Below are positions 30,075 to 44,509 of a stretch of 64,000 nucleotides of DNA, one piece after another. Each line of letters opens with the position of its first letter. The stretch's first letter is position 1. Below the pieces are notes generated by a model. It was not told where the DNA came from. It saw only the letters and a list, made by a program, of their open reading frames with translations, and made no database searches. A program made the position numbers and the translations under genes. The DNA comes from Candidatus Thorarchaeota archaeon (GTDB lineage: Archaea > Asgardarchaeota > Thorarchaeia > Thorarchaeales > Thorarchaeaceae). The DNA lies in contig JBHLRP010000006.1 in the NCBI GenBank assembly GCA_048882485.1, positions 32,001 to 96,000 on the forward strand, given 5' to 3'.

Positions 30075-30623
30075 TTATCCACGTGCAGGATAAGTGAGGG
30101 TTATCTTGAACCTGCAGGCATCACCCTTGGCAGACATGCATGTCTCTTCCATAATGAGTAGCTTTTCATGCCCCATTCTATTGTAGTCTGTCAGGTACTC
30201 CATCACGGCTTCTATGAATCCTCTGAGGAAGTAGCATGATGGTTCTTCCGCCTCATAACCAGATGCATAGGGATTGTCTTGAATTCGAACAATCGCCTCC
30301 TCATCGAGAAACAGCTTGTACAGGTTCTCAATCTCAACGTCGCCAAATGGCACAATCAGTGTCTTTAGAGCCATTTTGAGAAACTCAACAATTCCCTTGA
30401 AATCGCTTGGGGGCTTTTGATTTGCTACTTTGAAATACTCACGCTGCGCCTCCAGACCAGCCAGTCGTCCAGCGCTGTAATAGAGATCTCTGACACGATC
30501 AGGGAACATTACCTCAATGCGATTTCCAAGCTTATTCCATGTCTTGGCGAAAAACGCTCTCATCAAGTCTTTTTCTTTGACTCGGCTTTGCCACCAAGGA
30601 ATAACAGGATCTCGTTTAGACAT
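30075..30623 (-). CDS. V4R/Bet3-fold protein
   Basis: LYYSAGRLAG, PSCYFLRGFIEA, EETCMSAKGDACRF V4R motif. Confidence 0.82.
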   Translation of the reverse strand: MSKRDPVIPWWQSRVKEKDLMRAFFAKTWNKLGNRIEVMFPDRVRDLYYSAGRLAGLEAQREYFKVANQKPPSDFKGIVEFLKMALKTLIVPFGDVEIENLYKLFLDEEAIVRIQDNPYASGYEAEEPSCYFLRGFIEAVMEYLTDYNRMGHEKLLIMEETCMSAKGDACRFKITLTYPARG

Positions 30624-30683
30624 TGTAGAGTCTCCGAAGCTGGAGGAACGCAAGGGCGGTGTTAAGTGCTTTGCTACGACTTG

Positions 30684-31157
30684 CTAGACAAGACGTATGT
30701 TCCAGGTGCAATTGTCAGCTCCAGTGGCTTTGCATAGCTCTTGGAAGACCTTGGCATCAACACCTTTGAACTCTAGGATTACCTCCAGAATCCCGCTGAA
30801 CGCCTCGCAATAGCCAAATCCTCTCATTCCCTCTAGCGTGATTTCCTGGCACCAAATGCAATCCCTATCAGCGACTCTTATAGAGCCCCGTGCAGATTTC
30901 AGATCCACATCAGTGGGTTTCCGATCAAAAAGCAACCTGTAGATGCCATCTATAAGCTTTGCAACATCCTCGCGGGTCATCACTGTATCCTTTGTCTTTG
31001 ATGCGAGCTCGGTTGTAAGGTAAAGATGAGACCCCATCTCCCTTCCCGTGTCGCGAAGCCGTTGATTAGCCTCATCTATGTTGCTGGTTTCTGATAGGAC
31101 TCTTTCAACCCATTGAGCATAAAGACTTACGAATAGTGGGTTTTCGACTTTTGCCAT
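30684..31157 (-). CDS. Bet3/TRAPP-like V4R protein
   Basis: KVENPLFVSLY...EANQRL...GREMG Bet3-like N-terminus; YCEAFSGIL, QELCKATGADNC. Confidence 0.82.
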   Translation of the reverse strand: MAKVENPLFVSLYAQWVERVLSETSNIDEANQRLRDTGREMGSHLYLTTELASKTKDTVMTREDVAKLIDGIYRLLFDRKPTDVDLKSARGSIRVADRDCIWCQEITLEGMRGFGYCEAFSGILEVILEFKGVDAKVFQELCKATGADNCTWNIRLV

Positions 31158-31181
31158 TTATGTGGACCTCACTCAAGTTGT

Positions 31182-32174
31182 CTAGATAGTCTTGCCAATC
31201 ATGTTGATACCAAACTTCTTGTTGCGAGCGATTGTCTGAATCACTTCAGCATTTTGAATGCCTAGTAGTTCTGCGATTTCCTCAGTAGTCCTACTGCCAT
31301 CACAGAGTCTCAATATCTCAAGATCCTCCCCTTTGGCCTTGGACAAGTCTCCGATAAACTTGGGACACTTCACAAATCGACCCATCGTGTCCTCAGAAAC
31401 AGCTACGGTTTCTTCATCACACAACGGAGCCTCCACCATACCCTTTGATGCAGCCCACTTGATAAGTTCAGCAACTCTCTCATTTGGCTGAAACATTGAA
31501 TCAGCAATTCCTGCAACTGTAGCAGAACCATCCACTAACATCAGTACATCAAAGCCGAAGTTCCCATGCACCTGCTTCATTTCATTGTGTAGATCTGAAT
31601 CCAGATTGAGGGCATCTCCGTAACTTGGACCTCGCTTCGGAATTGTAGTGGGCTGTACATTGAATGCTTCTGGAGGCTTGGCCGCTTCTTCTGCAATATG
31701 TTCGGGCTTTGTCTCAATCAGATCCTCAGGTTCCGGCACTACAAACTCAGGCTCACTAGCTTCAGGTGTCGTTGATGCCGCTTGCATTGCTATGCTTTCG
31801 AGTACTTTCAGGTTGGATTCTGCTGATTCCTCAAATTCATCAGGCGGCGGCGGAAGCTCAATGCCCTCCAATAATCTTAGAACATTCTTAGTCTTGGCAA
31901 TAGCAAGGCCAAGCTGCAACTCCGTGACATAAAGAACAGTCAGTATCCAATTCAAATCAACGGGAGAGAGGACCACTAGACCTCGGTCCGTGTCGATTGT
32001 CATGAGGCGCAAATCGGTCTTGTATAGATTGATGCTATCCCTGACTCTAGGGAATAGCTCTGAAGGAAAAGAGAAGCTCACAAACGGCCTGCCGGCTTTC
32101 GTCATCAGCGAATAGCCGAGCACCTGTTCATCGAATCTCAGTTTTGCGAGGGCTCTTTCCAAATCGCTGCTCAT
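31182..32174 (-). CDS. Roadblock/profilin-like N-domain protein with Pro/Glu linker and two wHTH-like domains
   Basis: VLGYSLMTKAGRPF..QLGLA; MLVDGSATVAGIA and LCDGSRTTEEIA; paralog of 34117-35100. Confidence 0.7.
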   Translation of the reverse strand: MSSDLERALAKLRFDEQVLGYSLMTKAGRPFVSFSFPSELFPRVRDSINLYKTDLRLMTIDTDRGLVVLSPVDLNWILTVLYVTELQLGLAIAKTKNVLRLLEGIELPPPPDEFEESAESNLKVLESIAMQAASTTPEASEPEFVVPEPEDLIETKPEHIAEEAAKPPEAFNVQPTTIPKRGPSYGDALNLDSDLHNEMKQVHGNFGFDVLMLVDGSATVAGIADSMFQPNERVAELIKWAASKGMVEAPLCDEETVAVSEDTMGRFVKCPKFIGDLSKAKGEDLEILRLCDGSRTTEEIAELLGIQNAEVIQTIARNKKFGINMIGKTI

Positions 32175-33607: not shown

Positions 33608-34114
33608 TTATGGATATTTCCTCAGAGTCCAGGTACAGGCATCATCACCTAGTGCTTTGCAGGATTCTTGGAAGCTATCAGCCTTGAATCCTCTAAGCTC
33701 CATGACAGCGTCAAATACTCCGGAGACAATATTGCAGTATTGTAGGCCAGGCATATCGCTGACCTCAACTCCGGCACATATTGGACAATCATCATCCGTG
33801 AACTTAATGGTGTTCTTGTCGTCGCTGACCCAAATGTCTGTGAACTCTTGGCCAGAATTGACCTTGTATGCCAATCCAAGAGTGTTGGCGAACTCGTGAA
33901 ACTGGCCTGCGTGTTGCCGAATTCTATCGGCGTAGTCCATTAACAGAGTTTCACCCACCTTGAACCCAATCTGCTTCATCTTGCGATTGATTTCTTCCAC
34001 ACTCTCGCTACTCGCCATAAGTAAATTCATCATCTCTCTATAACTCGCTTGGAATAGAACCTTAGAGACCTTATCGGTCATGAATGACCAAGCAATCTTG
34101 CCTTTGATTCCCAT
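33608..34114 (-). CDS. Bet3/TRAPP-like V4R protein
   Basis: KVSKVLFQASY.....SVEEINRKMKQIGFKVGETLLMDY matches the Bet3 (TRAPPC3) N-terminal pattern; LQYCNIVSGV, QESCKALGDDAC. Confidence 0.85.
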   Translation of the reverse strand: MGIKGKIAWSFMTDKVSKVLFQASYREMMNLLMASSESVEEINRKMKQIGFKVGETLLMDYADRIRQHAGQFHEFANTLGLAYKVNSGQEFTDIWVSDDKNTIKFTDDDCPICAGVEVSDMPGLQYCNIVSGVFDAVMELRGFKADSFQESCKALGDDACTWTLRKYP

Positions 34115-34116
34115 TA

Positions 34117-35100
34117 TTATGACACCTCTGGTTCAGTGTCCATCTTCTTGCTTTTGCGTATGAAACGTAGCGTTTTGCCACGATAGGGAAGTATGCTCTG
34201 CAGAGCCTGGAAGTATGGAATACCAAGTTCGTGGGATATATCCTGAAGAGAGCGATTTCCATCACATAGAGACAGAAGATCTCGATGTTCTTTCTTTGCT
34301 TTCTTTAATTCGCCCTCAAAGATTGGCAGCTCAATAATCTCAACGGCGCCAGTTTCTTGCGTATCAGGACACTCCACTCGAACTATCTTTCTGGGTACAC
34401 ACCAGCGAATTACTCCAAGCGCTTCTTCGACTCCACGGCCAAGACTCTCAGCAATCTTGAAGATTGTCCGTTTCTCATCAGCCATCAGCAGGATATCGAT
34501 TCCAATATTTGCAAATCTGGCTTTGATTTCTTTGTTGAGATCGGATTCAAGAGTCATCGTTTCATTATACTTCTCTCCACGAAAGACAACACAACCATGC
34601 CTAATCTCTACTTCCGGTTCTGCTATAGCAGGTTCAACCTCAGCTACTGGCTTCAGCTCTGTTTCAGGCAATTCTGGTTCGATAACAGTTTCTGCAGCCA
34701 TAGTTCTCGCGGACTCCTCTACTTGAACTCGGAGAGGCGGCTCTGGTTGTGGAACAGGAGTAGGCGGTGGAGGTAGAATGACACTTTTCATCAGGTTGAT
34801 TACTTCCGTTGCCTTCTGAAGAGCCACTCCAAGCTGCAAGTCTGGCAGGAAAAGTACTGCAAGTACCCAATTCCCATCTACTCTAGACAGGATGACTGTG
34901 CCTTCTCCTGTCATGACATTCATCATCTTCAAAGAGTCTGAATGAATCCGCATAGCACCTTGTATTTGTGGAAGAACCTCATCAGGAAGAGAAAATGAGA
35001 GAAATGGCTGACCATCGTTCGTGATTAGAGCGTATCCGCTGACAGTATCATCAAATTTGAGTTTGGTCAAAACACGCTCTAATTCCAAGAAGACGTACAC
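34117..35100 (-). CDS. Roadblock/profilin-like N-domain protein with Pro/Glu linker and wHTH-like domains
   Basis: VSGYALITNDGQPFLSFS..QLGVA; LCDGNRSLQDIS; paralog of 31182-32174. Confidence 0.7.
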   Translation of the reverse strand: MYVFLELERVLTKLKFDDTVSGYALITNDGQPFLSFSLPDEVLPQIQGAMRIHSDSLKMMNVMTGEGTVILSRVDGNWVLAVLFLPDLQLGVALQKATEVINLMKSVILPPPPTPVPQPEPPLRVQVEESARTMAAETVIEPELPETELKPVAEVEPAIAEPEVEIRHGCVVFRGEKYNETMTLESDLNKEIKARFANIGIDILLMADEKRTIFKIAESLGRGVEEALGVIRWCVPRKIVRVECPDTQETGAVEIIELPIFEGELKKAKKEHRDLLSLCDGNRSLQDISHELGIPYFQALQSILPYRGKTLRFIRKSKKMDTEPEVS

Positions 35101-35130: not shown

Positions 35131-36249
35131 TCAAACACGGTTAACAAGTCTTTCGCCGAGAGACTCAAGGCTGGGTTCGGAACGAAGAAAAGCTATTGTT
35201 TCCGCACGGGTGGGGTGGGAGGCGTCCACAGAAGAAACGTATTGTGATGCGACTGCATTAGCAAGTGATAGTCGGTCGAAGTCCTCCAGTTTCTGAAGTG
35301 TGCCAAAGATGTCCCCTGCATTCCATGCATCTCCAGCCCCACATATAATCCGACTTACCACGTTAAATGTAGGAACCACAGTGAGTTTGTCATCCATGAT
35401 TGAAGCAGTGAAATGTTGGGTATGCAGATCAATCCTTGTTCCTGTTTCTGTTGATACCAACTTGGCGGCGGAGAGCCAGTGCTCAGGTTCTGAAGAAAGA
35501 TGTTCCCAATGGCTGCTCTTTCCACTGATAGCCCATGCAAACCAACGAGCTTCATTCTCATTCAGACTCACAATGTCAACCAAGCCCTCACCCAAGATGT
35601 TCCTAGCTAGCGGTTCAACTATATCCAAATTACCTGATGGGTCACCAACATCCATGAATCTGATGGCCTTGGAGGAGGCTCCAACCATCTCAAAAAGGTC
35701 ATGTGCAAGTTCAGGTGCATTAGGATTGTGGTTCAAGTTAAGTAGAGCGACTAGATTACTTGCTTGGATTGCTGACAAATCCCTCTCGGTGAGGTCTGAG
35801 AATGAGAACTCTGCAGCAGAGCCACTATCACTCACCATTAGATTCACTCGTCTACCCTCATGTTCAAGCTCTATTGATACTGTTGAAGATAATCTGCCGT
35901 CGGTGTGAACATGACTGAGATCAAGGTCGGAACTAACGAGTGTTGGAAGAATCGCTGAACCATAATCATCTGTCGTGATGATTAGCACAGGATTCAGACC
36001 AAGCGCTAGAAGGGCTGATGCGGTGTTTACAGAGTTGCCCCCTCGACGTAGGAACTGCTTGTTGCCTAGTAGATTTCCTCCACCCTGCTTCGCCAATGCT
36101 GTCAGACCTTTAATGAACTCATCAAATTGCCCTGCAATAACAAAATGATCAACATAGAAGTCTGGCAGAATTACAGGTCGTCCCACATCAATTGGCGTTT
36201 CCAGAGCTTTGATGAGCCGGTTGTACTCCAGCTCTATCGCCTCCATCAA
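35131..36249 (-). CDS. PfkB family carbohydrate kinase
   Basis: GGNSVNTASAL, SLNENEA, CGAGDAWNAG. Confidence 0.88.
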   Translation of the reverse strand: MMEAIELEYNRLIKALETPIDVGRPVILPDFYVDHFVIAGQFDEFIKGLTALAKQGGGNLLGNKQFLRRGGNSVNTASALLALGLNPVLIITTDDYGSAILPTLVSSDLDLSHVHTDGRLSSTVSIELEHEGRRVNLMVSDSGSAAEFSFSDLTERDLSAIQASNLVALLNLNHNPNAPELAHDLFEMVGASSKAIRFMDVGDPSGNLDIVEPLARNILGEGLVDIVSLNENEARWFAWAISGKSSHWEHLSSEPEHWLSAAKLVSTETGTRIDLHTQHFTASIMDDKLTVVPTFNVVSRIICGAGDAWNAGDIFGTLQKLEDFDRLSLANAVASQYVSSVDASHPTRAETIAFLRSEPSLESLGERLVNRV

Positions 36250-36264
36250 TGAACTGATGCAACA

Positions 36265-36729
36265 TCAGATCTTCTTTAATGCAGCCTTCACCATGGCTGT
36301 GATTCGGTTTTCATCAATGCCCGTTTTCTTGGCCACTTTATCAATCTCACAATATGCCAAATCGGATAATGACTTTATGCCAGCCTCTACTAGCTTCTGT
36401 GCCTCATCCTTTTTGACCGCTCGTAGTGATGACAGCTCTTCTACCGCCTTGTCATCTTTCTTTGTCCTTTTCGGCTTGGCTACTTCAATCTTGGTCATCT
36501 GAGCAACAAGTTCATCGAGGTCCTTGATATACTGCTTTAAAGCTTCCACGTTCTCTTCATGGGTCGTCTTCCGTCTGACATCTATTATGAGGCCCATCCG
36601 GCGTGCCTCTTCAATCGCCAGTCCAGCCTTCTTTGTTTCATCAATACTAAAACCTCGTCCGCGCCGTGGATCTGCTTTGCTAGGCGACTTAACGAGGGGT
36701 TCTGCTGCTATTTCAAAGGTCAAGGACAA
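36265..36729 (-). CDS. rpl13e: 50S ribosomal protein L13e with C-terminal HhH-like extension
   Basis: RRGRGFSIDE.KKAGL....ARRMGLIIDVRRKT.HEENVEAL; tail EAQKLVEAGIKSLSDLA. Confidence 0.9.
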   Translation of the reverse strand: MSLTFEIAAEPLVKSPSKADPRRGRGFSIDETKKAGLAIEEARRMGLIIDVRRKTTHEENVEALKQYIKDLDELVAQMTKIEVAKPKRTKKDDKAVEELSSLRAVKKDEAQKLVEAGIKSLSDLAYCEIDKVAKKTGIDENRITAMVKAALKKI

Positions 36730-36759
36730 TCACCAAATTCGGCACGCCAGCCTGAGGAC

Positions 36760-36816
36760 TACTTATTAGGCTTTCGAGATGGCAAGAGTCTGCATATTCG
36801 TGTACGCTAATAGGCA
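36760..36816 (+). repeat. Cassette site 1 (core A + right unit B')
   Basis: TACTTATTAG-GCTTT-CGAGATGGCA agagtc TGCATATTCG-TGTACG-CTAATAGGCA. Confidence 0.92.
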
Positions 36817-36987
36817 AATTAGTTTTCGAGGGATTTTAATGGTGCATAGATTATACAAAGAAGTACTCAATCGTAGATATATGAACCATTCATCACAAGC
36901 GTTATGGCAAGCACTCTCTGTTGCTAAAAGGATGCCCCCACCTACCAAACTAACTTCTCAATGGATATTGAGATAAGAGCGATGGTT

Positions 36988-37818
36988 CTATTCAAACTTT
37001 TCAAACTTATCTTTAGGCAATTTTGAAGACCGAAGCAAACCTTTCTGTTTCTCAATCTTCTCCTCTTGCTCATCTGAAGGTCGTATCAAACGTTTCTGCT
37101 CATCAATCTTCAACCTTCGCTCTTCAGTGAGTCTTGTTGGATCAATCTTCCCTTCACGAAGTATCTCCTTGAATTCATCGATGAGGTAATCCTTGATTGT
37201 GCAAAGTGAGCCACTTTCATACCTATCGCATTCTCGGATCATATCTGGAAAATAGTAAAAGCTTTCCCTCATCAAATAATGTATCGCCATGTCATCATCA
37301 TAATAGTCTGGTTCTTTTTCAAGAACAAACAAGTAATATTCCTCTATTATATGGACATCGAGAATATCATCACTATATGCAATCTTCTTTGGATACGATT
37401 TCGCATACTCCTTCAGGATACAGAAATCAACATCAGTCATAATAGAAGCGATATGTTCTGCTATAGACTTCTTCACAGTGCGAATAATACTCAACTGGCT
37501 ATCCAATGCCCCATCTTGAATGCGTTCTTTCAATTCAGCATCATAGATCCAATATCTAGAGAATTCAACTAGTCCTTCAAGTTCATCTTGAATCTTTGAC
37601 GGTAATTTCGAGAAGCTAGGAAAGGTTCTGAGAGCAAAGAATGAAGGTCCAGCCTTTTCATACTGCTCCTGTATCCCACGGTTCGTAGTCTTCTCATGTC
37701 GATTTCGATCAATCTTCTCGAGAATTGTGAGAATCGTACTAATCGAGTGGTCTTCATCTTTCGACTCTCGTGTTGGCGAGATTACACCTCTGTTGTCATC
37801 ATCGCTAATCTAATCCAA
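36988..37818 (-). pseudogene. Cassette 1 hypothetical protein; frame extends well upstream of the called TTG and contains one TAG
   Basis: ORF 36988-37533 frame stays open to 37809, preceded by TTG GAT TAG (TAG at 37810-37812). Confidence 0.5.
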
Positions 37819-37956
37819 CCCCCTGTACAAACGAGAAGTGCTCTACGATTTATGTCTTCCCAGCTCAGATGTGTTGCAATATCAACTCTGGTAGTATTAT
37901 ATGATATGTTAAAAGTGGAAGACAGAAGGGAGTTGCCAAACAGATTTATTCAGATG

Positions 37957-38013
37957 CGCGTTTAAGTATATATTAGTTGGCAGGAGTTCGCCTATTAGGC
38001 TTTCGAGATGGCA
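37957..38013 (+). repeat. Cassette site 2 (left unit B + core A)
   Basis: CGCGTTTAAG-TATATA-TTAGTTGGCA ggagtt CGCCTATTAG-GCTTT-CGAGATGGCA, then a partial B' arm CGCCGTTAG. Confidence 0.92.
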
Positions 38014-38041
38014 AGGAATCGCCGTTAGTTCATAGTGATTA

Positions 38042-38242
38042 CTAGCGTTTCATTGACAGGACAAGTGCCTCTGTCAATACTCCTAGAGCAAAGAGAGCAG
38101 CCAGAGGGAGAATGACGAATATGAAGGGGACTTCAGGGCTCATACCTGGAGGGTGAATGTCCAGAAGTATGAACACTATAGTAGCCACTATCAGAATGCC
38201 AGAGATCAGAATTAACTTTCTGGGTCTACTCATGGAGTCCAA
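38042..38242 (-). CDS. Cassette 2: small two-TM membrane protein
   Basis: 66 aa, two hydrophobic helices; similar to ORF 42381-42611. Confidence 0.7.
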   Translation of the reverse strand: MDSMSRPRKLILISGILIVATIVFILLDIHPPGMSPEVPFIFVILPLAALFALGVLTEALVLSMKR

Positions 38243-38341
38243 TTGATTTCCCTGTAGCCTTCACTCTTTGTACACATATGCTTTTGGACAACTCACAGTT
38301 CACTACGAAGAAGACTATCATTCGGAGCCTTTACTTAGATA

Positions 38342-38430
38342 GGCGTTTAAGTATATACTAGGAGGCAAAAGGCCGCTTATTAGGCTTTCGAGATGGCAAT
38401 GAAATGCGTATTATGTAGGAGTGACTGGCA
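38342..38430 (+). repeat. Cassette site 3 (B + A + B')
   Basis: GGCGTTTAAG-TATATA-CTAGGAGGCA aaaggc CGCTTATTAG-GCTTT-CGAGATGGCA atgaaa TGCGTATTAT-GTAGGA-GTGACTGGCA. Confidence 0.92.
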
Positions 38431-38566
38431 TTGACTGAGGCCGTTTGCTTTCCTGTAATACCTCCAGAACGAGCACTACCACCTGTGCTTGAGGATAGCA
38501 TTGCACGTTTGTGAATGAATCACATGACGCTCATTCTTGATTCTGAGTTTCTTGCCTATTAGTGGT

Positions 38567-39664
38567 TCAAGTTCTCCTCATTCTCAATAGAAACAAGCCA
38601 AGTATTGCTGCCCCCACAATCAATACTATGAGTATAGGATATAAAAGAGGTATGATTCCTGGATATGTCCTCGGAAATCTGTCTTCGTGTCCTGATGAAC
38701 CATCAATCAAGTATGTGCCAAATCCGAAATAATCATCCCAATAGTTGCCTAATTGATTTGAGTCATCCCAAGTGTTATTTGTTCCTCGATCGCGTGCATT
38801 GGACACTCCGTTTCGTAGAAAGTAATTCTCATAAAGCACATTTCCAGATCCTTCCAAATCAATCCCATACCCTGAGTTGTCAGAAAGGATGTTTCCAATG
38901 AATTTACAGTTCATCGCAAAAGCAGTTATGCCATAGGCACCAGAATCAGCAATATTGTTTTGTAGCACCTCAATCTGTGATATTTCATCCAGGTGCATTC
39001 CATGACTATTGCTTGAGTGAATTGAGTTTGAAATGATTCTTAAATTGGATGCATTACTGAGATGCATACCAGTCGATTGAGAGTCTGTAATTTGATTGTC
39101 TACAATACTTGTGTTCGTTGCGTCTATCATATCAATTCCTGAGTTCAACATCACATTACTAGAAAACGCACAATTATCAACACGGATTGCGTAGATGCCT
39201 TGACTTTGTTGTGACCGTACATCGTTACCAGTCATGTTAGTATTCTCGCACTCGACCAAAAGGACACACGCTGCATTCCCATCAATATCACAGTCCTCGA
39301 TGATACCGTTTTCGACATTTATGAGTTCGATAGCATTGTAGCCAAGTGCTGTGCTTTCAAACCAATAGGACTCCAGCTGACAGTTTCTAATGGTGAAATA
39401 TACAGTAGTATTGCTAATTGAGATACAAGAGGTGTTTGTAAAAATCCGTATATTCTCAATGATGAAGGGATGCGCGACAGAGCCATCCCCAGGCCACCCT
39501 TGTTCAGTGAAATTTGAGTCATCCGAAATGACTATTGGCGGATGATCTGTAGTAGCAATAGCGGCGTCAAGAGTTAATCGATTAATGGTGGTATATGCAA
39601 GAAAGGGTATTGAAACAATTACTAGTAGAATTGCAACTGATGTTACACGCCACACCGAATTCAC
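38567..39664 (-). CDS. Cassette 3: NosD/CASH right-handed beta-helix surface protein
   Basis: Signal/TM N-terminus, GWPGDGS...PFIIEN, repeated N.I..N..YGI coils, GNYWDDY, DRFP, C-terminal TM; AT-rich DNA. Confidence 0.88.
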   Translation of the reverse strand: MNSVWRVTSVAILLVIVSIPFLAYTTINRLTLDAAIATTDHPPIVISDDSNFTEQGWPGDGSVAHPFIIENIRIFTNTSCISISNTTVYFTIRNCQLESYWFESTALGYNAIELINVENGIIEDCDIDGNAACVLLVECENTNMTGNDVRSQQSQGIYAIRVDNCAFSSNVMLNSGIDMIDATNTSIVDNQITDSQSTGMHLSNASNLRIISNSIHSSNSHGMHLDEISQIEVLQNNIADSGAYGITAFAMNCKFIGNILSDNSGYGIDLEGSGNVLYENYFLRNGVSNARDRGTNNTWDDSNQLGNYWDDYFGFGTYLIDGSSGHEDRFPRTYPGIIPLLYPILIVLIVGAAILGLFLLRMRRT

Positions 39665-39833
39665 TATGACAATATATACTAATTCTGTTATTGAAGTTTA
39701 TCCCAGAAGATGCTCTAGATTTGTGAAGATCCCAATTCTTAATTGATTCCTTAAATTCTCAACAAAAGGCATCCTTGAATCGAATACGTAATAGTATCAC
39801 TATGGAGACAGGAATGATGATTTTGTTCAAATT

Positions 39834-39922
39834 CGCCTTTAAGCAAAGACTAGTTCGCAGGTTCCTGCTTATTAGGCTTTCGAGATGGCATTACTCTGCG
39901 TATTCGTGTACGCTAGAAGGCA
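39834..39922 (+). repeat. Cassette site 4 (B + A + B')
   Basis: CGCCTTTAAG-CAAAGA-CTAGTTCGCA ggttcc TGCTTATTAG-GCTTT-CGAGATGGCA ttactc TGCGTATTCG-TGTACG-CTAGAAGGCA. Confidence 0.93.
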
Positions 39923-39994
39923 AAGTCCAAAAAGTGACATAGGTTGATTCACTCTGTTCTGAGAGAGAAGAAGGAGGAAAAGGCATGACGGAAA

Positions 39995-40234
39995 GTGAAT
40001 AAGATGCATGAGGACAGAAGGAAGTGGTTAGCTGTAATTGTACTGGTTATTCCATTAATACTGATATTTCTCATATTTGCACCGTCATACTATGAAACTT
40101 TGACGATTGAAGGAAAACGTGTTTTTATGTTGGTGTTTCAGATTGTATTCCTATACACTTTAGGCGGTCTTGTGTTGCGTTGGCTTGAAGGTAGACATAA
40201 AGTAAAGGATGACTCAAACACGCCTTTGACTTAA
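39995..40234 (+). CDS. Cassette 4: small two-TM membrane protein
   Basis: 79 aa with two hydrophobic helices; its stop codon lies inside unit B of site 5. Confidence 0.7.
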   Translation: MNKMHEDRRKWLAVIVLVIPLILIFLIFAPSYYETLTIEGKRVFMLVFQIVFLYTLGGLVLRWLEGRHKVKDDSNTPLT

Positions 40235-40277
40235 CGCTAAGAGGAATTCTCGCGTGGATTAGGCTTTCGAGATGGCA
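40221..40277 (+). repeat. Cassette site 5 (B + A)
   Basis: CGCCTTTGAC-TTAACG-CTAAGAGGAA ttctcg CGTGGATTAG-GCTTT-CGAGATGGCA; lies between two convergent stop codons. Confidence 0.9.
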
Positions 40278-40289
40278 AAACAATATCAT

Positions 40290-41087
40290 TCACTTGATAT
40301 CCAGTCCGAAAACAGACTCGACTAATTCAGCAAATCGTGCGACAAAGCGAGCTGCAGGACCGCCATCAACCACATCATGGTTCATGAAGATACTGACACA
40401 GAGGTATTCTCTAGCCAAAATGCTATCATCAATGACAGCTGGCTTCATTGCGATACCTCCTAGCGCAAAAAGCACAGGAGAGATGCTAATGGGGATGGCC
40501 CATCCACTTTTTCCCTTGCCATACATTCCAACTGCTGTAACTGTGACTGTACCAAGGTGCTTCTTGACAAAAAAGGGGTCAGTTCTAAACTTTCGCCAAA
40601 ACAGGAAGTCACGCAGAAACTTTGGCAGTGCGAAAAGTCTTCGCATCATTTTTCGATTGATTGTATCAGAAATGTCACCATCTGTACGATATCGAACTGC
40701 CCATATTTCATCCTGGATCTCATGCACAGTTTTTTCATTGGCTTTTCTTACAATGTATGTCTGAGCTCCTATCTCTTCATCCACCTGTCTTTCAACCATG
40801 ACTGAAACATCTACATCTTTGAAAATGATCAATCGCTTCCCTTTTTTTATTGCATGAACATTTCTATGTTCGCTGACAGCTTGTGCGATGCACTTTGTTA
40901 TCCAAGCTGTAAAGGAGAGCTCTCTTCCTGAGCTGTCTTCGTACTCTTTAATTAGTTGACGGCCTTTTGTGACATCCACCTCTATTAGACCTGAAATATA
41001 GTGGGAACGAAGTCCTTGTTCCATTAATTCCACAACAATCTCACGCTCAAAGGGCTTTTCCTCATATTCTTCTATCAGGTCCATCAC
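40290..41087 (-). CDS. Cassette 5: stand-alone 2-oxoacid dehydrogenase acyltransferase catalytic-domain protein
   Basis: EVDVT, SFTAWITKCIAQA, GTVTVTAVG, MNHDVVDGGPAARF; no lipoyl domain. Confidence 0.88.
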   Translation of the reverse strand: MMDLIEEYEEKPFEREIVVELMEQGLRSHYISGLIEVDVTKGRQLIKEYEDSSGRELSFTAWITKCIAQAVSEHRNVHAIKKGKRLIIFKDVDVSVMVERQVDEEIGAQTYIVRKANEKTVHEIQDEIWAVRYRTDGDISDTINRKMMRRLFALPKFLRDFLFWRKFRTDPFFVKKHLGTVTVTAVGMYGKGKSGWAIPISISPVLFALGGIAMKPAVIDDSILAREYLCVSIFMNHDVVDGGPAARFVARFAELVESVFGLDIK

Positions 41088-41165
41088 AATCCTAGCAATG
41101 AGGATTGTAGCTTCAACGTATTACTGTTTTGTCCAACCAAAAAGCTCGAGAGGTTTGTTTAGACG

Positions 41166-41221
41166 TGAGATTAAGTATAAAGCTGGGACAATCAATCGCC
41201 GCCTAGGCTTTTGAGCTAGAT
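41166..41221 (+). repeat. Cassette site 6 (degenerate)
   Basis: TGAGATTAAG-TATAAA... then CGCCGCCTAG-GCTTT-TGAGCTAGAT at about the expected spacing. Confidence 0.6.
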
Positions 41222-41355
41222 AATGAAAAGGCAGGAGCATCTGAAACATTACTGTATCAGATAGAGTCATAGCGGCAGTTTTGCATAGTTGCCTGCGCTG
41301 AGAGGAATAATAATAGGACGCATTACATCTACTGTGAGAAGGAGGGGTCCACACA

Positions 41356-42180
41356 ATGAAGTGTCGAATAGGAAATTCCGAAGTTCACTATGAAATGTAT
41401 GGAGAAGGCAGACCAATCATCAGCTTACATGGTTTCACTCTAGACCACCGTTCGATGGTCGGCAGCATGGAACCTATCTTCGAGAGTAGAAATGGTTGGA
41501 AACGGATATACCTAGACTTGCCAGGACACGGTCAAACTCCAGGTCAGGAATGGATTAAGAACTCAGATAACATGCTGCAGGTTGTAATAGACTTCATTGA
41601 CAATGTGATTCCTGACACGAGCTTCGCAATTGCAGGCTTGTCTTATGGTGGTTATCTAGCGCGAGGTTTAGTTCATAATAGACCAAAGCAAGTACTTGGA
41701 CTACTACTAATCGTTCCTAGGATTATTGGCCGCTCAGAAGATAGAATACGTCCTGAAAAGGCTGTGCTGGTGAGAGATGAAGAGTTTCTTTGCAGCCTTG
41801 AAGAAGAGGAACGCGAGAATTTTGTAGAGGTAGCAGTAATCCAAACTGAAGACATTTGGCCTCGCTATGCAGAGGAGATTGTACCTGCTGTTCAGATATC
41901 AGACACACAATTTCTAGGACGCTTGCAACCTGGTGATGATGATTTCAGCTTCGAAGTCGATTCTCTCTCTGTCATTTTCAGTGGTCCGACCCTCATTCTG
42001 GTAGGCCGACAAGATCATTGGGTGGGATATGAAGACGCTTGGAGAATCTTGGAAAAATATCCTCGCGCAACATTCGCGGTCTTGGATAGAGCAGGTCATG
42101 CTTTGCAGCTTGAGCAGACTGAGTTGTTCAATATGCTTGTATCTGAGTGGCTTGATAGAGTAGAAGAAGCTGAGAAGTAA
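41356..42180 (+). CDS. Cassette 6: alpha/beta hydrolase
   Basis: LHGF, YLDLPGHG, GLSYGG nucleophile elbow, GRQD, AGH. Confidence 0.92.
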   Translation: MKCRIGNSEVHYEMYGEGRPIISLHGFTLDHRSMVGSMEPIFESRNGWKRIYLDLPGHGQTPGQEWIKNSDNMLQVVIDFIDNVIPDTSFAIAGLSYGGYLARGLVHNRPKQVLGLLLIVPRIIGRSEDRIRPEKAVLVRDEEFLCSLEEEERENFVEVAVIQTEDIWPRYAEEIVPAVQISDTQFLGRLQPGDDDFSFEVDSLSVIFSGPTLILVGRQDHWVGYEDAWRILEKYPRATFAVLDRAGHALQLEQTELFNMLVSEWLDRVEEAEK

Positions 42181-42274
42181 ATGAGGCCTCCGTGGCAGAC
42201 ACTCCTCACTCCTCTATGCTGCTATTGCGCCACACATTCCACTGTTGCTATGACGATTACATGCACTAGGATCT

Positions 42275-42299
42275 TGACCTATCACTTTTCGAGATAGCA
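42275..42299 (+). repeat. Cassette site 7 (degenerate core)
   Basis: TGACCTATCA-CTTTT-CGAGATAGCA in the gap between two convergent genes. Confidence 0.5.
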
Positions 42300-42380
42300 G
42301 TAGCTTGACGTCTATGCAGGCTTGTAAAGCGGATATCATGAGCATATGGGAGGTTTGTTGATTGTGATGTCTTCCTCTTA

Positions 42381-42611
42381 TCACTCCCGTTTCCTCGTCA
42401 ACACTGCTGCCATCGCCACCATTGTTAATGGAATGACTATACTCAGAGGCAGTATGATGAACAACAGGGGCATTTGGATGTCGATTCCCTGGGGAATCAT
42501 TTCCAGTAGCACATACACGATGGTGATAGCAAGCAGAGCTGTCATCACAATCAGGATCCCACCCCAAAGATATGCCCACCATGGCGCTCTGCCCAACGAG
42601 CCTTTCCCCAT
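42381..42611 (-). CDS. Cassette 7: small two-TM membrane protein
   Basis: ATG at 42611; GILIV..TIVYVLLE.IPQG...MPLLFIILPL similar to ORF 38042-38242. Confidence 0.7.
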   Translation of the reverse strand: MGKGSLGRAPWWAYLWGGILIVMTALLAITIVYVLLEMIPQGIDIQMPLLFIILPLSIVIPLTMVAMAAVLTRKRE

Positions 42612-42858
42612 GTATTCCTGATGAGTTCCTACCTTACTTGGTTGACGCAAGGAATTCAACTTATTCACTCTGATACTCGCTCTTTGCACACATATGCTTT
42701 TGCTCAAACCATTGTTCACTCCAAGATGCCATCATTTTGAAGCCATCTGAATGTGCGCCTATGCCTGAACTATGATGCAGAAGTTTGTCCATTGAAATCC
42801 GGTTGGATGCTATCTCCACTCGGTTTAGGCTAGTGTATACGGAGAAACGGTTCTGAAA

Positions 42859-43551
42859 TCAAAGAATGATGGTTCTCCGACTATCCAGCCAGAATGCAAC
42901 CAAAGCAAACAATGCGTATAGGATTTCTGACACCAAGGCGACAGTCAACATGTCTGGAAAGGTTTGGAAAGGAGTGATGATTATGAAGATGACAAGCGCA
43001 AACAGGAATGCAGATATGCCATATTTGCCCAATAGTCCGGTTCCTGAAGTGGTTGAATAGAAGTATATCAAGCCACCACCCAAGAGAATGATGGTCTCCA
43101 GTAGTATCGTTGCCGGAATGCTATTCCATAGGCCCAGTCCTATTTTCATGTCTATTCCAGGAATCAATAGCAAATCCGGTGTATGAACAAGAAAATCCAA
43201 GAGGTAATGAGATAGAACACCAACACCAAAGAGAAGAGCTGTTCTGTTTTTATAGGCGGCAGTTGCTGTTGAACTCCTCAAAGCAATGTACCTAACGAAA
43301 AGGAACACAGCCGCAGTCCAAGCAAGTGATCCAACTAGACTATGGGTAATTGGGAGATCATAGAGGTCAAAGGAATTAGCAGCTGTAAAACCTGGAGCAA
43401 TCCGAGCGTTCTCGATTCCCAAGGGAAGGAAGATGAAGAAAGCAATATCCACCAGCTGCACAGCGATAAAAAGGAAGCCAAGTGATATTCCCGGGGCATA
43501 TTTCTTTAGACCTAGAGCTATTCCATAATGTCCTATAAACACAAGAGTCAA
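42859..43551 (-). CDS. Membrane-bound metal-dependent hydrolase (YdjM/LexA-inducible-like)
   Basis: FIGH, QLVD, ITHSL, LSHYLLDFLVH motifs, multiple TM helices. Confidence 0.82.
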   Translation of the reverse strand: MTLVFIGHYGIALGLKKYAPGISLGFLFIAVQLVDIAFFIFLPLGIENARIAPGFTAANSFDLYDLPITHSLVGSLAWTAAVFLFVRYIALRSSTATAAYKNRTALLFGVGVLSHYLLDFLVHTPDLLLIPGIDMKIGLGLWNSIPATILLETIILLGGGLIYFYSTTSGTGLLGKYGISAFLFALVIFIIITPFQTFPDMLTVALVSEILYALFALVAFWLDSRRTIIL

Positions 43552-43594
43552 GCCTCAGACCTGAATAAAAGTATTGACATTTCAAATTGGCTCT

Positions 43595-44410
43595 TCAGAA
43601 ATCCTCAAGCGAAGTCTGTTTGATTGAGATGAAATTCTCCATCAGTTTCAGCTTCTGGAGCTGGCGTGGTGTGATACGTTCCATTAATTGTAGCATCTGT
43701 AGTGCATTGAATGGTGAATTTCCACTGAAATGATTGTTCCAGTACCCTAGAACCAACTCCGTCCGATTCATGATATCTTCTAGACGAGGCTTCCAAGCCA
43801 TTAGCTCTTCTTCGGAGTAGAGGTAGTTGTACCACGGATTCACTCCATGGCCATGCCAGCGCACATACGCGAAATCAGTTGTGACACGCAAATCAATTGG
43901 GAGTTTGGGCTCATCAACAATAACGTAGGCCACCCCATAGTCCTCAAGCAACCTTGATGTCTTCTGAGACAGCCAGCTCTCATCCCTGAACTCAATGGCA
44001 TATCGAAAAGATGAGTCGAGCTGCGAGAGGAAGGCTTCAAGGTCTGCCATCTTCGATATATCCCAAGGAGGAAGTTGAATGAGCAAAGCCGCAATCTTGT
44101 TCTGAATCGGACTCATAAGTGAAAAGAACGATTTCAGTACTTCACCCCCTTCTCCTAATAGATTCATCCGACTGTCATGTGTCACTTTCTTGGGGAGCTT
44201 GGCTGTGAAGAATTTGCCCTCTTTGAGTGAAGCCAGATGCTTTATGAAATTAGGTTGCGGGAGAGAATAAAAGGTTGAGTTAATTTCCGCAGTTTCAAAG
44301 ATTGCAAGATACTGTTGAAGGAGTGATTTTCCTGAGTAATAGAACACATCCTTCCAATCACTCTCATATGACCAACCACTTGTGCCAATATGGAGTCCTT
44401 TTCTTGACAT
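43595..44410 (-). CDS. DUF72 family protein
   Basis: IGTSGWSY, EINSTFY, KLPKKVTH, LIQLPP, AIEFRDESW, YVRWHG, YLYS, WNN. Confidence 0.93.
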   Translation of the reverse strand: MSRKGLHIGTSGWSYESDWKDVFYYSGKSLLQQYLAIFETAEINSTFYSLPQPNFIKHLASLKEGKFFTAKLPKKVTHDSRMNLLGEGGEVLKSFFSLMSPIQNKIAALLIQLPPWDISKMADLEAFLSQLDSSFRYAIEFRDESWLSQKTSRLLEDYGVAYVIVDEPKLPIDLRVTTDFAYVRWHGHGVNPWYNYLYSEEELMAWKPRLEDIMNRTELVLGYWNNHFSGNSPFNALQMLQLMERITPRQLQKLKLMENFISIKQTSLEDF

Positions 44411-44509
44411 TGTCACAATATGTTGATGGAATCAAATGGGTTTCTATCTTCCGGCATTGAAGAAGAGATTCATAAGAAACAAGAACTGCGATGCAAGTGT
44501 GAATGACCA

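Follow-up and report, generated by a model that had tools for sequence, protein, structure and literature searches.

Analysis of a 64,000-nucleotide stretch from Candidatus Thorarchaeota archaeon (GenBank assembly GCA_048882485.1, contig JBHLRP010000006.1, positions 32,001 to 96,000 of the forward strand; hereafter the window, with its first letter as position 1) revealed an array of small gene cassettes between rpl13e, the gene for ribosomal protein L13e, and a gene of the DUF72 family. A common core sequence (A) recurs at the junctions of this array, and the copy next to rpl13e, which we call site 1 or the anchor, coincides with the likely promoter of that gene. We consider site 1 to be the left junction (attL type, att denoting an attachment site) of a site-specific integration into the rpl13e promoter, and give this reading a probability of about 0.7. 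It is based on the anatomy of site 1, on relatives in which the same locus is empty, on integrase genes and remnants beside the core, and on cassette boundaries that coincide with the core edges.

Anatomy of Site 1

Five plus-strand copies of the 21-mer core ATTAGGCTTTCGAGATGGCAA were found in the window, at 36765 (36765-36785, no mismatches), 37994, 38379, 39871 (one mismatch) and 40258, against none expected (100 shuffles), and these are the only copies in the genome (3.96 Mb, 90.5% complete). Sites 2-5 have in common two arms, B on the left (~60 nt) and B' on the right, and a profile of the B-A-B' unit aligns with them from model positions 2-17, whereas at site 1 the alignment begins only at position 59-60. 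The place taken by B at the internal sites is filled here by the conserved rpl13e leader (X), over which the profile does not align; rpl13e-side matches in relatives (paired by coordinate) likewise have their first aligned model position at 50-61, except in L006, where it is 33. The original prediction, which described site 1 as A and B' with no B unit on the left, is therefore borne out.

The core of site 1, the identity block common to all junctions, spans 36762-36785 on the plus strand, as delimited by repeat comparison and by the end of left-flank homology in relatives. Its minus strand reads GAAAGCCTAATAAGTA from 36775 to 36760, just as had been stated, and contains at 36762-36775 (minus strand) a BRE/TATA-like element GAAAGCCTAATAAG (BRE, TFIIB recognition element), which scores 13.7 bits on a matrix derived from tRNA genes and is the likely rpl13e promoter. 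On the other side of the core, B' (36786-36838, plus strand) appears to be an element-derived arm that reaches the start codon of an integrase remnant. Positions 36759-36818 are 88% identical to 39865-39924 at site 4, including the first 33 nt of B' (36786-36818), and over its full length B' is homologous to the sequence flanking the anchor in two relatives, G046 and G049.

The rpl13e gene (Pfam PF01294, E = 2.3e-12; with a C-terminal extension) was first called as an open reading frame (ORF) at 36265-36729 on the minus strand, from the first TTG. In the start region close relatives have GGTGA, 6 nt and then ATG-AGC-TTC-GAA, and the window has GGTGA-TTGTCC-TTG-ACC-TTT-GAA at the same place. 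Because of this alignment, the true start is most likely the TTG at 36723 rather than that at 36729, which gives a gene of 36265-36723. The leader X from TATA box to start codon (36724-36761, minus strand) is conserved with relatives and holds the Shine-Dalgarno sequence GGTGA (36730-36734). The core had been placed 31-55 nt upstream of the rpl13e start. That figure refers to a slightly wider core; the 21-mer (36765-36785) lies 36-56 nt upstream of TTG 36729, and the TATA-like octamer (36762-36769) is 39-46 nt upstream of TTG 36723. The start codon is the one point that had to be corrected.

The C-terminal extension of L13e in the window shows weak Pfam matches to AF1548-like_C and DUF4332. 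At the rpl13e locus of some genera in the order, the match is limited to the N-terminal ~70 residues, and in two genomes (G077 and G078) the C-terminal part matches a separate, longer ORF elsewhere.

Conservation of the Core and Empty Sites in Relatives

The genomes compared are related metagenome-assembled genomes (MAGs), many with contig breaks at the rpl13e-DUF72 locus, so that counts share kinship; assembled contigs are the sequence basis for all junctions described here. With up to two mismatches, a 20-mer core pattern was found in 50 of the 87 genomes of the order (8 of 17 genera, 1-5 copies each), and the reversed control pattern in none. The genes around the core keep a conserved order, with pfkB and rpl13e on one side and DUF72, glnA and an aminotransferase gene on the other. 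Of the 30 relatives' loci fetched, 26 have the core next to rpl13e, at 36-43 nt from where the alignment of L13e codons begins, the remaining four being array-internal or right-hand pieces. This conservation is seen despite an L13e identity of only 49-67% in these loci.

There are 37 genomes without the core at this threshold, 30 of which have L13e. In such genomes CTTATTAGnCTTTC or a close variant is kept upstream of L13e at the same distance, while GAGATGGCA is variable or absent. Across 56 anchors, CTTAT and CTTTC are invariant and stand at a fixed distance from the Shine-Dalgarno sequence and the start codon, and GAG(A/G)TGGCA is 80-90% conserved; overall conservation is 80-100% across the core and drops to ~40-50% immediately to the right of GGCA. 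A related motif is present even in distant genera. Judging from these alignments, the universal part of the core appears to be its left half CTTATTAGnCTTTC (the TATA/BRE part) only. The earlier proposal that the attachment site is the bare A core embedded in the rpl13e promoter thus holds for the location (26 of 30 loci; 13.7 bits) and needs narrowing as to the core, of which only the left half is universal.

Both rpl13e and the DUF72 gene were held by 34 of the relatives' loci. The gap between them is 67-151 nt in 15 loci, which we regard as empty sites, and 238-4271 nt in the other 19. At the empty sites the DUF72 stop codon follows ~25-35 nt to the right of the core, which is present at up to two mismatches in six (L006, L007, L008, L017, L019 and L025) and at 3-5 mismatches in four. 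The check that had been proposed for the original prediction, namely whether the core occurs upstream of rpl13e in array-free relatives, thus gave a positive answer. In the window, the DUF72 gene (43595-44416, minus strand; Pfam PF01904), which is syntenic right beside the core in empty-site relatives and forms the conserved right border of the insertion interval, lies ~6.9 kb from rpl13e. Since this distance compares with 67-151 nt at empty sites, 36786-43594 appears to be inserted material throughout. The interval also splits MAG assemblies, with a contig end less than 4 kb beyond the core in 8 of the 20 stretches fetched around cores, and it represents a hot spot of strain-level variation.

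A Tyrosine Integrase Gene Beside the Anchor

Pfam scanning of 68 ORFs from the relatives' arrays revealed one tyrosine recombinase (PF00589, 86 bits), in G086. Its gene starts ~56 nt to the right of the anchor core and is interrupted by the contig end; a second contig of the same genome starts within the gene and runs on into DUF72, glnA and the aminotransferase gene. The layout in G082 is the same, and the integrase gene at the anchor looks intact in these two relatives. The G086 protein (~290 residues) contains residues (R, H-x-x-R and Y) that resemble, by eye and not by alignment to a reference, what we take to be the catalytic motifs of tyrosine recombinases.

In the window, B' of site 1 is followed by a 45-codon N-terminal stub of an Xer-like tyrosine integrase, ending in a stop codon (36839-36976, plus strand; 51% identity to residues 1-45 of the G086 protein, E = 1.3e-9), which has no Pfam match on its own. 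Homologous broken remnants are present at the same place in G046 and G049, and an integrase gene or stub stands at a fixed distance to the right of A-B' in three genera (intact in g16, remnants in g1 and g12). Because B' leads straight into the stub, and because the gene looks intact there in two relatives, site 1 is probably the left junction of a decayed integrase-bearing element that is followed by tandem integrase-less cassettes. Its B' would be the upstream arm of the integrase gene and not a generic cassette arm. Pfam scans of 48 window ORFs (23-64 kb) detected no integrase, and two short remnants, the stub and one of 39 residues, are all that was found in the window's genome. Three integrase paralogues in relatives (G041:C29, G066:C413 and G031:C55; 26-49% identity) have no core beside them and were not counted as cognate.

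The family of the integrase bears on two other readings of the array. The best NCBIfam match of the G086 protein is the archaeal XerA model (NF040815), as would be expected if the repeats were dif-like sites at which the host chromosome-resolution recombinase XerA inserts cassettes, in the manner of integrative mobile elements exploiting Xer. We regard this as very unlikely: the match reaches 89 bits against a cut-off of 220, the window's own genome has no PF00589 match while 14 of 14 control genomes have one, and the point of exchange would be a promoter core whose site is linked with rpl13e throughout the order.

A classical integron, or a cluster of attC sites lacking an integron integrase, would be an attC array recombined by IntI as folded single strands. 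Small, mostly single-gene cassettes beside an integrase gene have this appearance, yet the integrase scores 46.4 bits on the IntI model TIGR02249 (cut-off 265) and 31.9 bits on NF011946 (cut-off 435). No attC-like folding was seen in eight single-strand DNA folds (four sites, both strands, DNA parameters), for which z-scores ranged from -1.60 to +0.62. The core site of integrons is short, ~7 nt, whereas the identity block here is 23 nt. Although integrons have been reported in Asgard MAGs (PMC9668308), this explanation is extremely improbable for the present array.

Cassette Boundaries and Rearrangement

The internal sites of the array all lie on the plus strand and have the B-A-B' layout. Site 2 (37945-38060, core 37994-38014) was identified by repeat comparison, core pattern and unit profile. 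Site 3 (38320-38440, core 38379-38399), at which a NosD/beta-helix cassette begins, and site 4 (39811-39934, core 39871-39891, one mismatch), whose B' is of the type seen at site 1, were identified by repeats, profile and BLASTN against relatives. Site 5 (40199-40337, core 40258-40278) was identified by core pattern, profile and BLASTN; it has lost the TATA part of the core (TGG for CTT), and an acyltransferase cassette begins there. Farther right, inspection of nhmmer matches revealed a decayed sixth site with B and a degenerate core (41141-41215, plus strand, E = 8e-4) and, more weakly, a possible decayed seventh site with a degenerate core and a B'-like stretch (42270-42332, plus strand, E = 0.017), so that the most degraded sites are those farthest from rpl13e. 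The distance between cores is 365-1945 nt, and the cassettes are mostly single-ORF. Alignment of 23 full B-A-B' units showed that, in many genomes, genes unrelated to one another are flanked by conserved B and B' arms. The Pfam-scanned ORFs of the window and of the relatives' arrays included no genes for transfer, replication or mobilisation.

BLASTN comparison of the window array with relatives revealed that homology breaks at the core. In seven loci the left-flank homology ends at 36782-36788. Edges of cassette homology are also core edges: cassette 2 matches from 37994, the NosD cassette through 39890 and cassette 4 over 39867-40275, and the homology of the acyltransferase cassette begins at 40257/40258 in three loci and at 40265 in a fourth. 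The NosD cassette, with a protein that is 99.5-99.7% identical between genomes, takes third place in the window and first place in G067, where it adjoins rpl13e; in G065 the acyltransferase cassette comes right after it, with no counterpart of the window's cassette 4 in between. Metagenome contigs from four public runs in four studies stop matching at 38375/38376. The unmatched sequence before 38376 resembles the rpl13e leader in three of them (X4, X5 and X8), and the loose end of X6, 11 letters, is too short to tell. Other metagenome contigs diverge just past cores, at 36784 and 38412/38413. From the breakpoints at core edges, the moves of the NosD cassette and these contig ends, gain, loss and reordering of cassettes at the core are well documented at the level of assembled sequence. 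From genome to genome the same site is occupied by cassettes unrelated to one another, the core edge at which insertion occurs does not vary, and X-A is intact beside rpl13e in every occupied locus examined. The core polymorphism GATGG versus GATAG tracks neither arm in the cassettes compared, and the crossover point is not mappable from it.

Several further features of the array and its sites were observed. In sites 2-4, B, A and B' each hold a similar module, GCGTwTwA ... GGCA, with ~31-32 nt spacing, so that each site resembles three direct repeats, and TGCGnATTA lies 7-17 nt to the right of the core at most occupied anchors and is absent at empty sites; these repeated modules and TGCGnATTA could be candidate integrase binding sites. 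A metagenome contig (X4) skips 1754 nt of the window (41117-42872), and an alpha/beta-hydrolase gene and a 122-aa ORF are thus absent in another population. The second copy of a 31-nt direct repeat (37618-37648 and 42843-42873, 84% identical) lies at the right edge of this skip. The 122-aa ORF (42214-42582, minus strand) and a 66-aa ORF (38042-38242, minus strand) each match 10 relatives' arrays (tblastn, 36-98% identity), with about half of the matched loci common to both. They have no Pfam match and may belong to one small-protein family.

Predicted Promoter Function of the Core

ARAGORN identified 18 tRNA genes in the genome, and from the 70 nt upstream of each a 14-nt BRE/TATA matrix was built by expectation-maximisation; its consensus, GAAAAGTTTATATC, consists of a purine-rich BRE followed by a TATA box. 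A preceding de novo motif search on 893 crudely called upstream regions had returned only coding-like, low-information motifs and was dropped in favour of the tRNA upstream regions. That only 18 tRNA genes were found in the whole genome may reflect intron-containing or split archaeal tRNAs as well as assembly incompleteness.

The minus strand of the core at site 1 (36775-36762) and the identical copies at sites 3 and 4 share the score of 13.7 bits. They are the only positions of at least 13 bits among ~128,000 in the window, and they rank 13-15 in the genome, where 25 positions reach at least 13 bits (3 of them training sites); 21 of the 25 are intergenic, against ~14% of the genome (crude ORF calling). 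The distance from the TATA end to the rpl13e start codon is 38 nt, which would allow a leader of ~15 nt carrying GGTGA, the usual distance from TATA box to transcription start in archaea being 23-27 nt. The left half of the core, read on the minus strand, is therefore the likely BRE/TATA box of rpl13e.

A different reason for keeping the core may be considered, such as an operator for an rpl13e regulator or a part of an unannotated RNA, whose invariance the elements would use. The basal promoter needs nothing of GAGATGGCA, which lies upstream of BRE and is nonetheless conserved in many genomes, including some empty sites. Against this, the left half agrees with the BRE/TATA consensus of the genome itself and is suitably spaced from the start codon. 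In addition, the core does not appear to be part of a known RNA gene, since Rfam gave no match over 36000-42000 (E ≤ 1) and ARAGORN detected no tRNA in the window. We judge this explanation improbable; it is compatible with an integration into the rpl13e promoter and not exclusive of it.

It had further been suggested that every downstream core copy may also act as a leftward promoter, and that most cassette genes are on the minus strand and start about 110-200 nt to the left of a core. Among 29 two-core cassettes (4 in the window and 25 in relatives; some recur, so that the counts are not independent), the longest ORF is on the minus strand in 20 and on the plus strand in 9, and 14 of the 20 minus-strand ORFs start 89-207 nt to the left of the next core. 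Three of the five core copies keep a full-scoring TATA box, while site 2 scores 9.4 bits and site 5, because CTT is replaced by TGG, less than 7 bits. No other matrix match of at least 8 bits was found between B and the NosD gene or the 66-aa gene of the window, and use of the core TATA box by cassette genes would imply leaders of 100-180 nt. On this evidence the suggested orientation of the cassette genes is weakly supported, and promoter activity of the downstream cores, predicted from their sequence, is only partly supported.

If the shared core is itself a strong BRE/TATA box, the array might also be read as a self-expressing platform for accessory genes, an archaeal functional analogue of the integron. 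An Xer-like integrase would capture small circular cassettes at a ribosomal-protein promoter, with each capture the gene of the neighbouring cassette would receive a new rpl13e promoter copy upstream, and expression of the integrase could depend on the front junction (B-A-B' when free, X-A-B' at the anchor). We advance this extension tentatively, and it is more doubtful than probable.

Proposed Mechanism and Evidence Against It

Under the favoured explanation, the ancestral locus would have consisted of rpl13e, X-A, ~30 nt and the DUF72 stop codon. A small Xer-like tyrosine integrase, whose role is suggested by its position, would recombine an incoming B-A-B' with the chromosomal core, the left half of which (minus strand) would be the rpl13e BRE/TATA box and the right half of which would reach ~9 nt upstream of BRE. 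Exchange would take place inside the shared core, so that the X-A side would stay with rpl13e. B' would replace only the stretch upstream of BRE, and for this reason the promoter would be rebuilt each time, unchanged from BRE downstream, with transcription of rpl13e predicted to start ~23 nt downstream of the TATA box, near 36738-36742. The claim that integration regenerates the promoter follows from this anatomy, in which the X-A side always stays with rpl13e. Cassettes would pass through a circular B-A-B' form. Repeated integrations together with decay of the integrase gene would have produced tandem integrase-less cassettes between rpl13e and DUF72 (36786-43594), and recombination between cores would add, remove and reorder them.

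Several observations weigh against this explanation. No B-A-Y right junction was found beside DUF72 in the window (up to 9 mismatches), and in G086 there is no recognisable B-A site between the integrase gene and DUF72 (up to 7 mismatches); the expected right junction seems to be missing or decayed. No circular or free B-A-B' was found among the contigs, and the extra core contigs of three genomes (G033, G031 and G017) turned out to belong to this very locus, on either its DUF72/glnA or its rpl13e side. Since GAGATGGCA, the right half of the core, is not present at 5 of the 15 empty sites, the target may be narrower than the 'bare A', or else this half may be a scar derived from an element. 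Contig ends divide the integrase gene in both G086 and G082, and its continuity is deduced from a 130-residue overlap with 99% identity. The integrase N-terminus was matched at E ≤ 1e-5 in only 17 of 87 genomes, few of these matches being strong. The window's 90.5%-complete genome has no PF00589 match, not even to a XerA, while all 14 control genomes have PF00589 matches; the array here is therefore probably frozen or moved in trans by something outside the bin. Finally, the MAGs compared are related and their counts are not independent, and the same breakpoints could arise by homologous recombination between short repeats.

This last point leads to the explanation that no dedicated recombinase is involved: the core would be the rpl13e promoter, copied before neighbouring accessory genes, the gain, loss and reordering of cassettes would come from homologous recombination between the 23-nt repeats (plus B), and the integrase would be a coincidental passenger. 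Breakpoints at core edges are equally expected from such recombination, and neither the window's own genome, which has no intact integrase, nor most array-bearing genomes, which have no strong integrase match, speak for an enzyme. However, promoter copying would not explain the conservation of both arms, B and B', next to genes of unrelated kinds in the 23 full units. The fixed distance of integrase or stub from A-B' in three genera, the constant core edge at which insertion occurs and the unrelated cassettes at the same site across genomes also argue against it, and we hold this explanation to be unlikely.

Genomic Surroundings

The window is part of an Asgard-type archaeal chromosome, with TRAPP/V4R, SNAP-like, L13e and eIF5A domains (Pfam) encoded near the array. 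Two adjoining paralogous gene sets were found at 30075-32174 and 33608-35100, each encoding a ~330-aa protein with a weak winged-helix match (HTH_47) and a TRAPP/V4R-like protein.

Comparison with Known Systems

The targets that site-specific integrases favour are invariant ones, for instance tRNA genes or housekeeping-gene ends. If the attachment core does coincide with a ribosomal-protein gene's BRE/TATA box, this would be an unusual choice of target. A full-text search of the literature library used returned no paper joining Thorarchaeota, integrase and gene cassettes, though the text and supplements of other papers on Asgard mobile elements could hold relevant material.

In archaea, integrases of the SSV and pNOB8 types are tyrosine recombinases that target tRNA genes, and their att core is identical to a conserved chromosomal sequence. 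The present system differs in that it targets no tRNA gene, integration leaves the integrase gene unsplit, and the locus holds a multi-cassette array instead of one provirus or plasmid. The integrase and its ~130-bp site would represent a recombination system that is defined and open to testing, from the archaeal lineage nearest to eukaryotes.

The array shares several features with integrons. Small, mostly single-gene cassettes are placed at a fixed site beside a tyrosine recombinase gene, their order and content vary among close relatives, and the best-preserved sites in the window are near the anchor. The differences are that there is no attC hairpin, the integrase is not IntI, and the site consists of a 23-nt identity core with B and B' arms; moreover, the anchor, which is a housekeeping promoter, has the integrase gene on its cassette side, and each junction can carry its own promoter copy, in contrast to the single cassette promoter (Pc) of integrons. 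If the junction copies are active promoters, the array would be a compact system of gene capture and expression in Asgard archaea, and a second, independent solution to the problem that integrons solve. IntI/attC integrons themselves are described as enriched in Asgard MAGs in the main text of PMC9668308, which mentions neither 'Thorarchaeota' nor 'ribosomal protein'.

Of the behaviours described in the literature, the closest is that of integrative elements which accrete in tandem, together with decayed derivatives lacking the integrase, at a single att site beside a housekeeping gene. According to the sections of PMC5704250 dealing with integrative and mobilizable elements (IMEs), cis-mobilizable elements (CIMEs) and ICESt1-type elements of bacteria, the end of a housekeeping gene serves as target for a tyrosine integrase, and a direct repeat rebuilds the gene. 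Decayed elements lose the integrase gene and keep att, and new ones enter at the att beside the target gene, which produces tandem stacks. The targets given there include the 3' ends of rplL, rpmE, rpmG and rpsI, and 5' ends 'more rarely' (PMC5704250). The array described here resembles such accretion in that a tyrosine recombinase gene adjoins an att junction, an identical core is found at every junction, the target gene is preserved and relatives keep an empty attB. It differs in its host, an archaeon of the Thorarchaeota, in its target, which is a promoter (BRE/TATA) and not the 3' end of a gene or a tRNA, and in the very small size of its units, which measure 365-1945 nt between cores and mostly hold one ORF.

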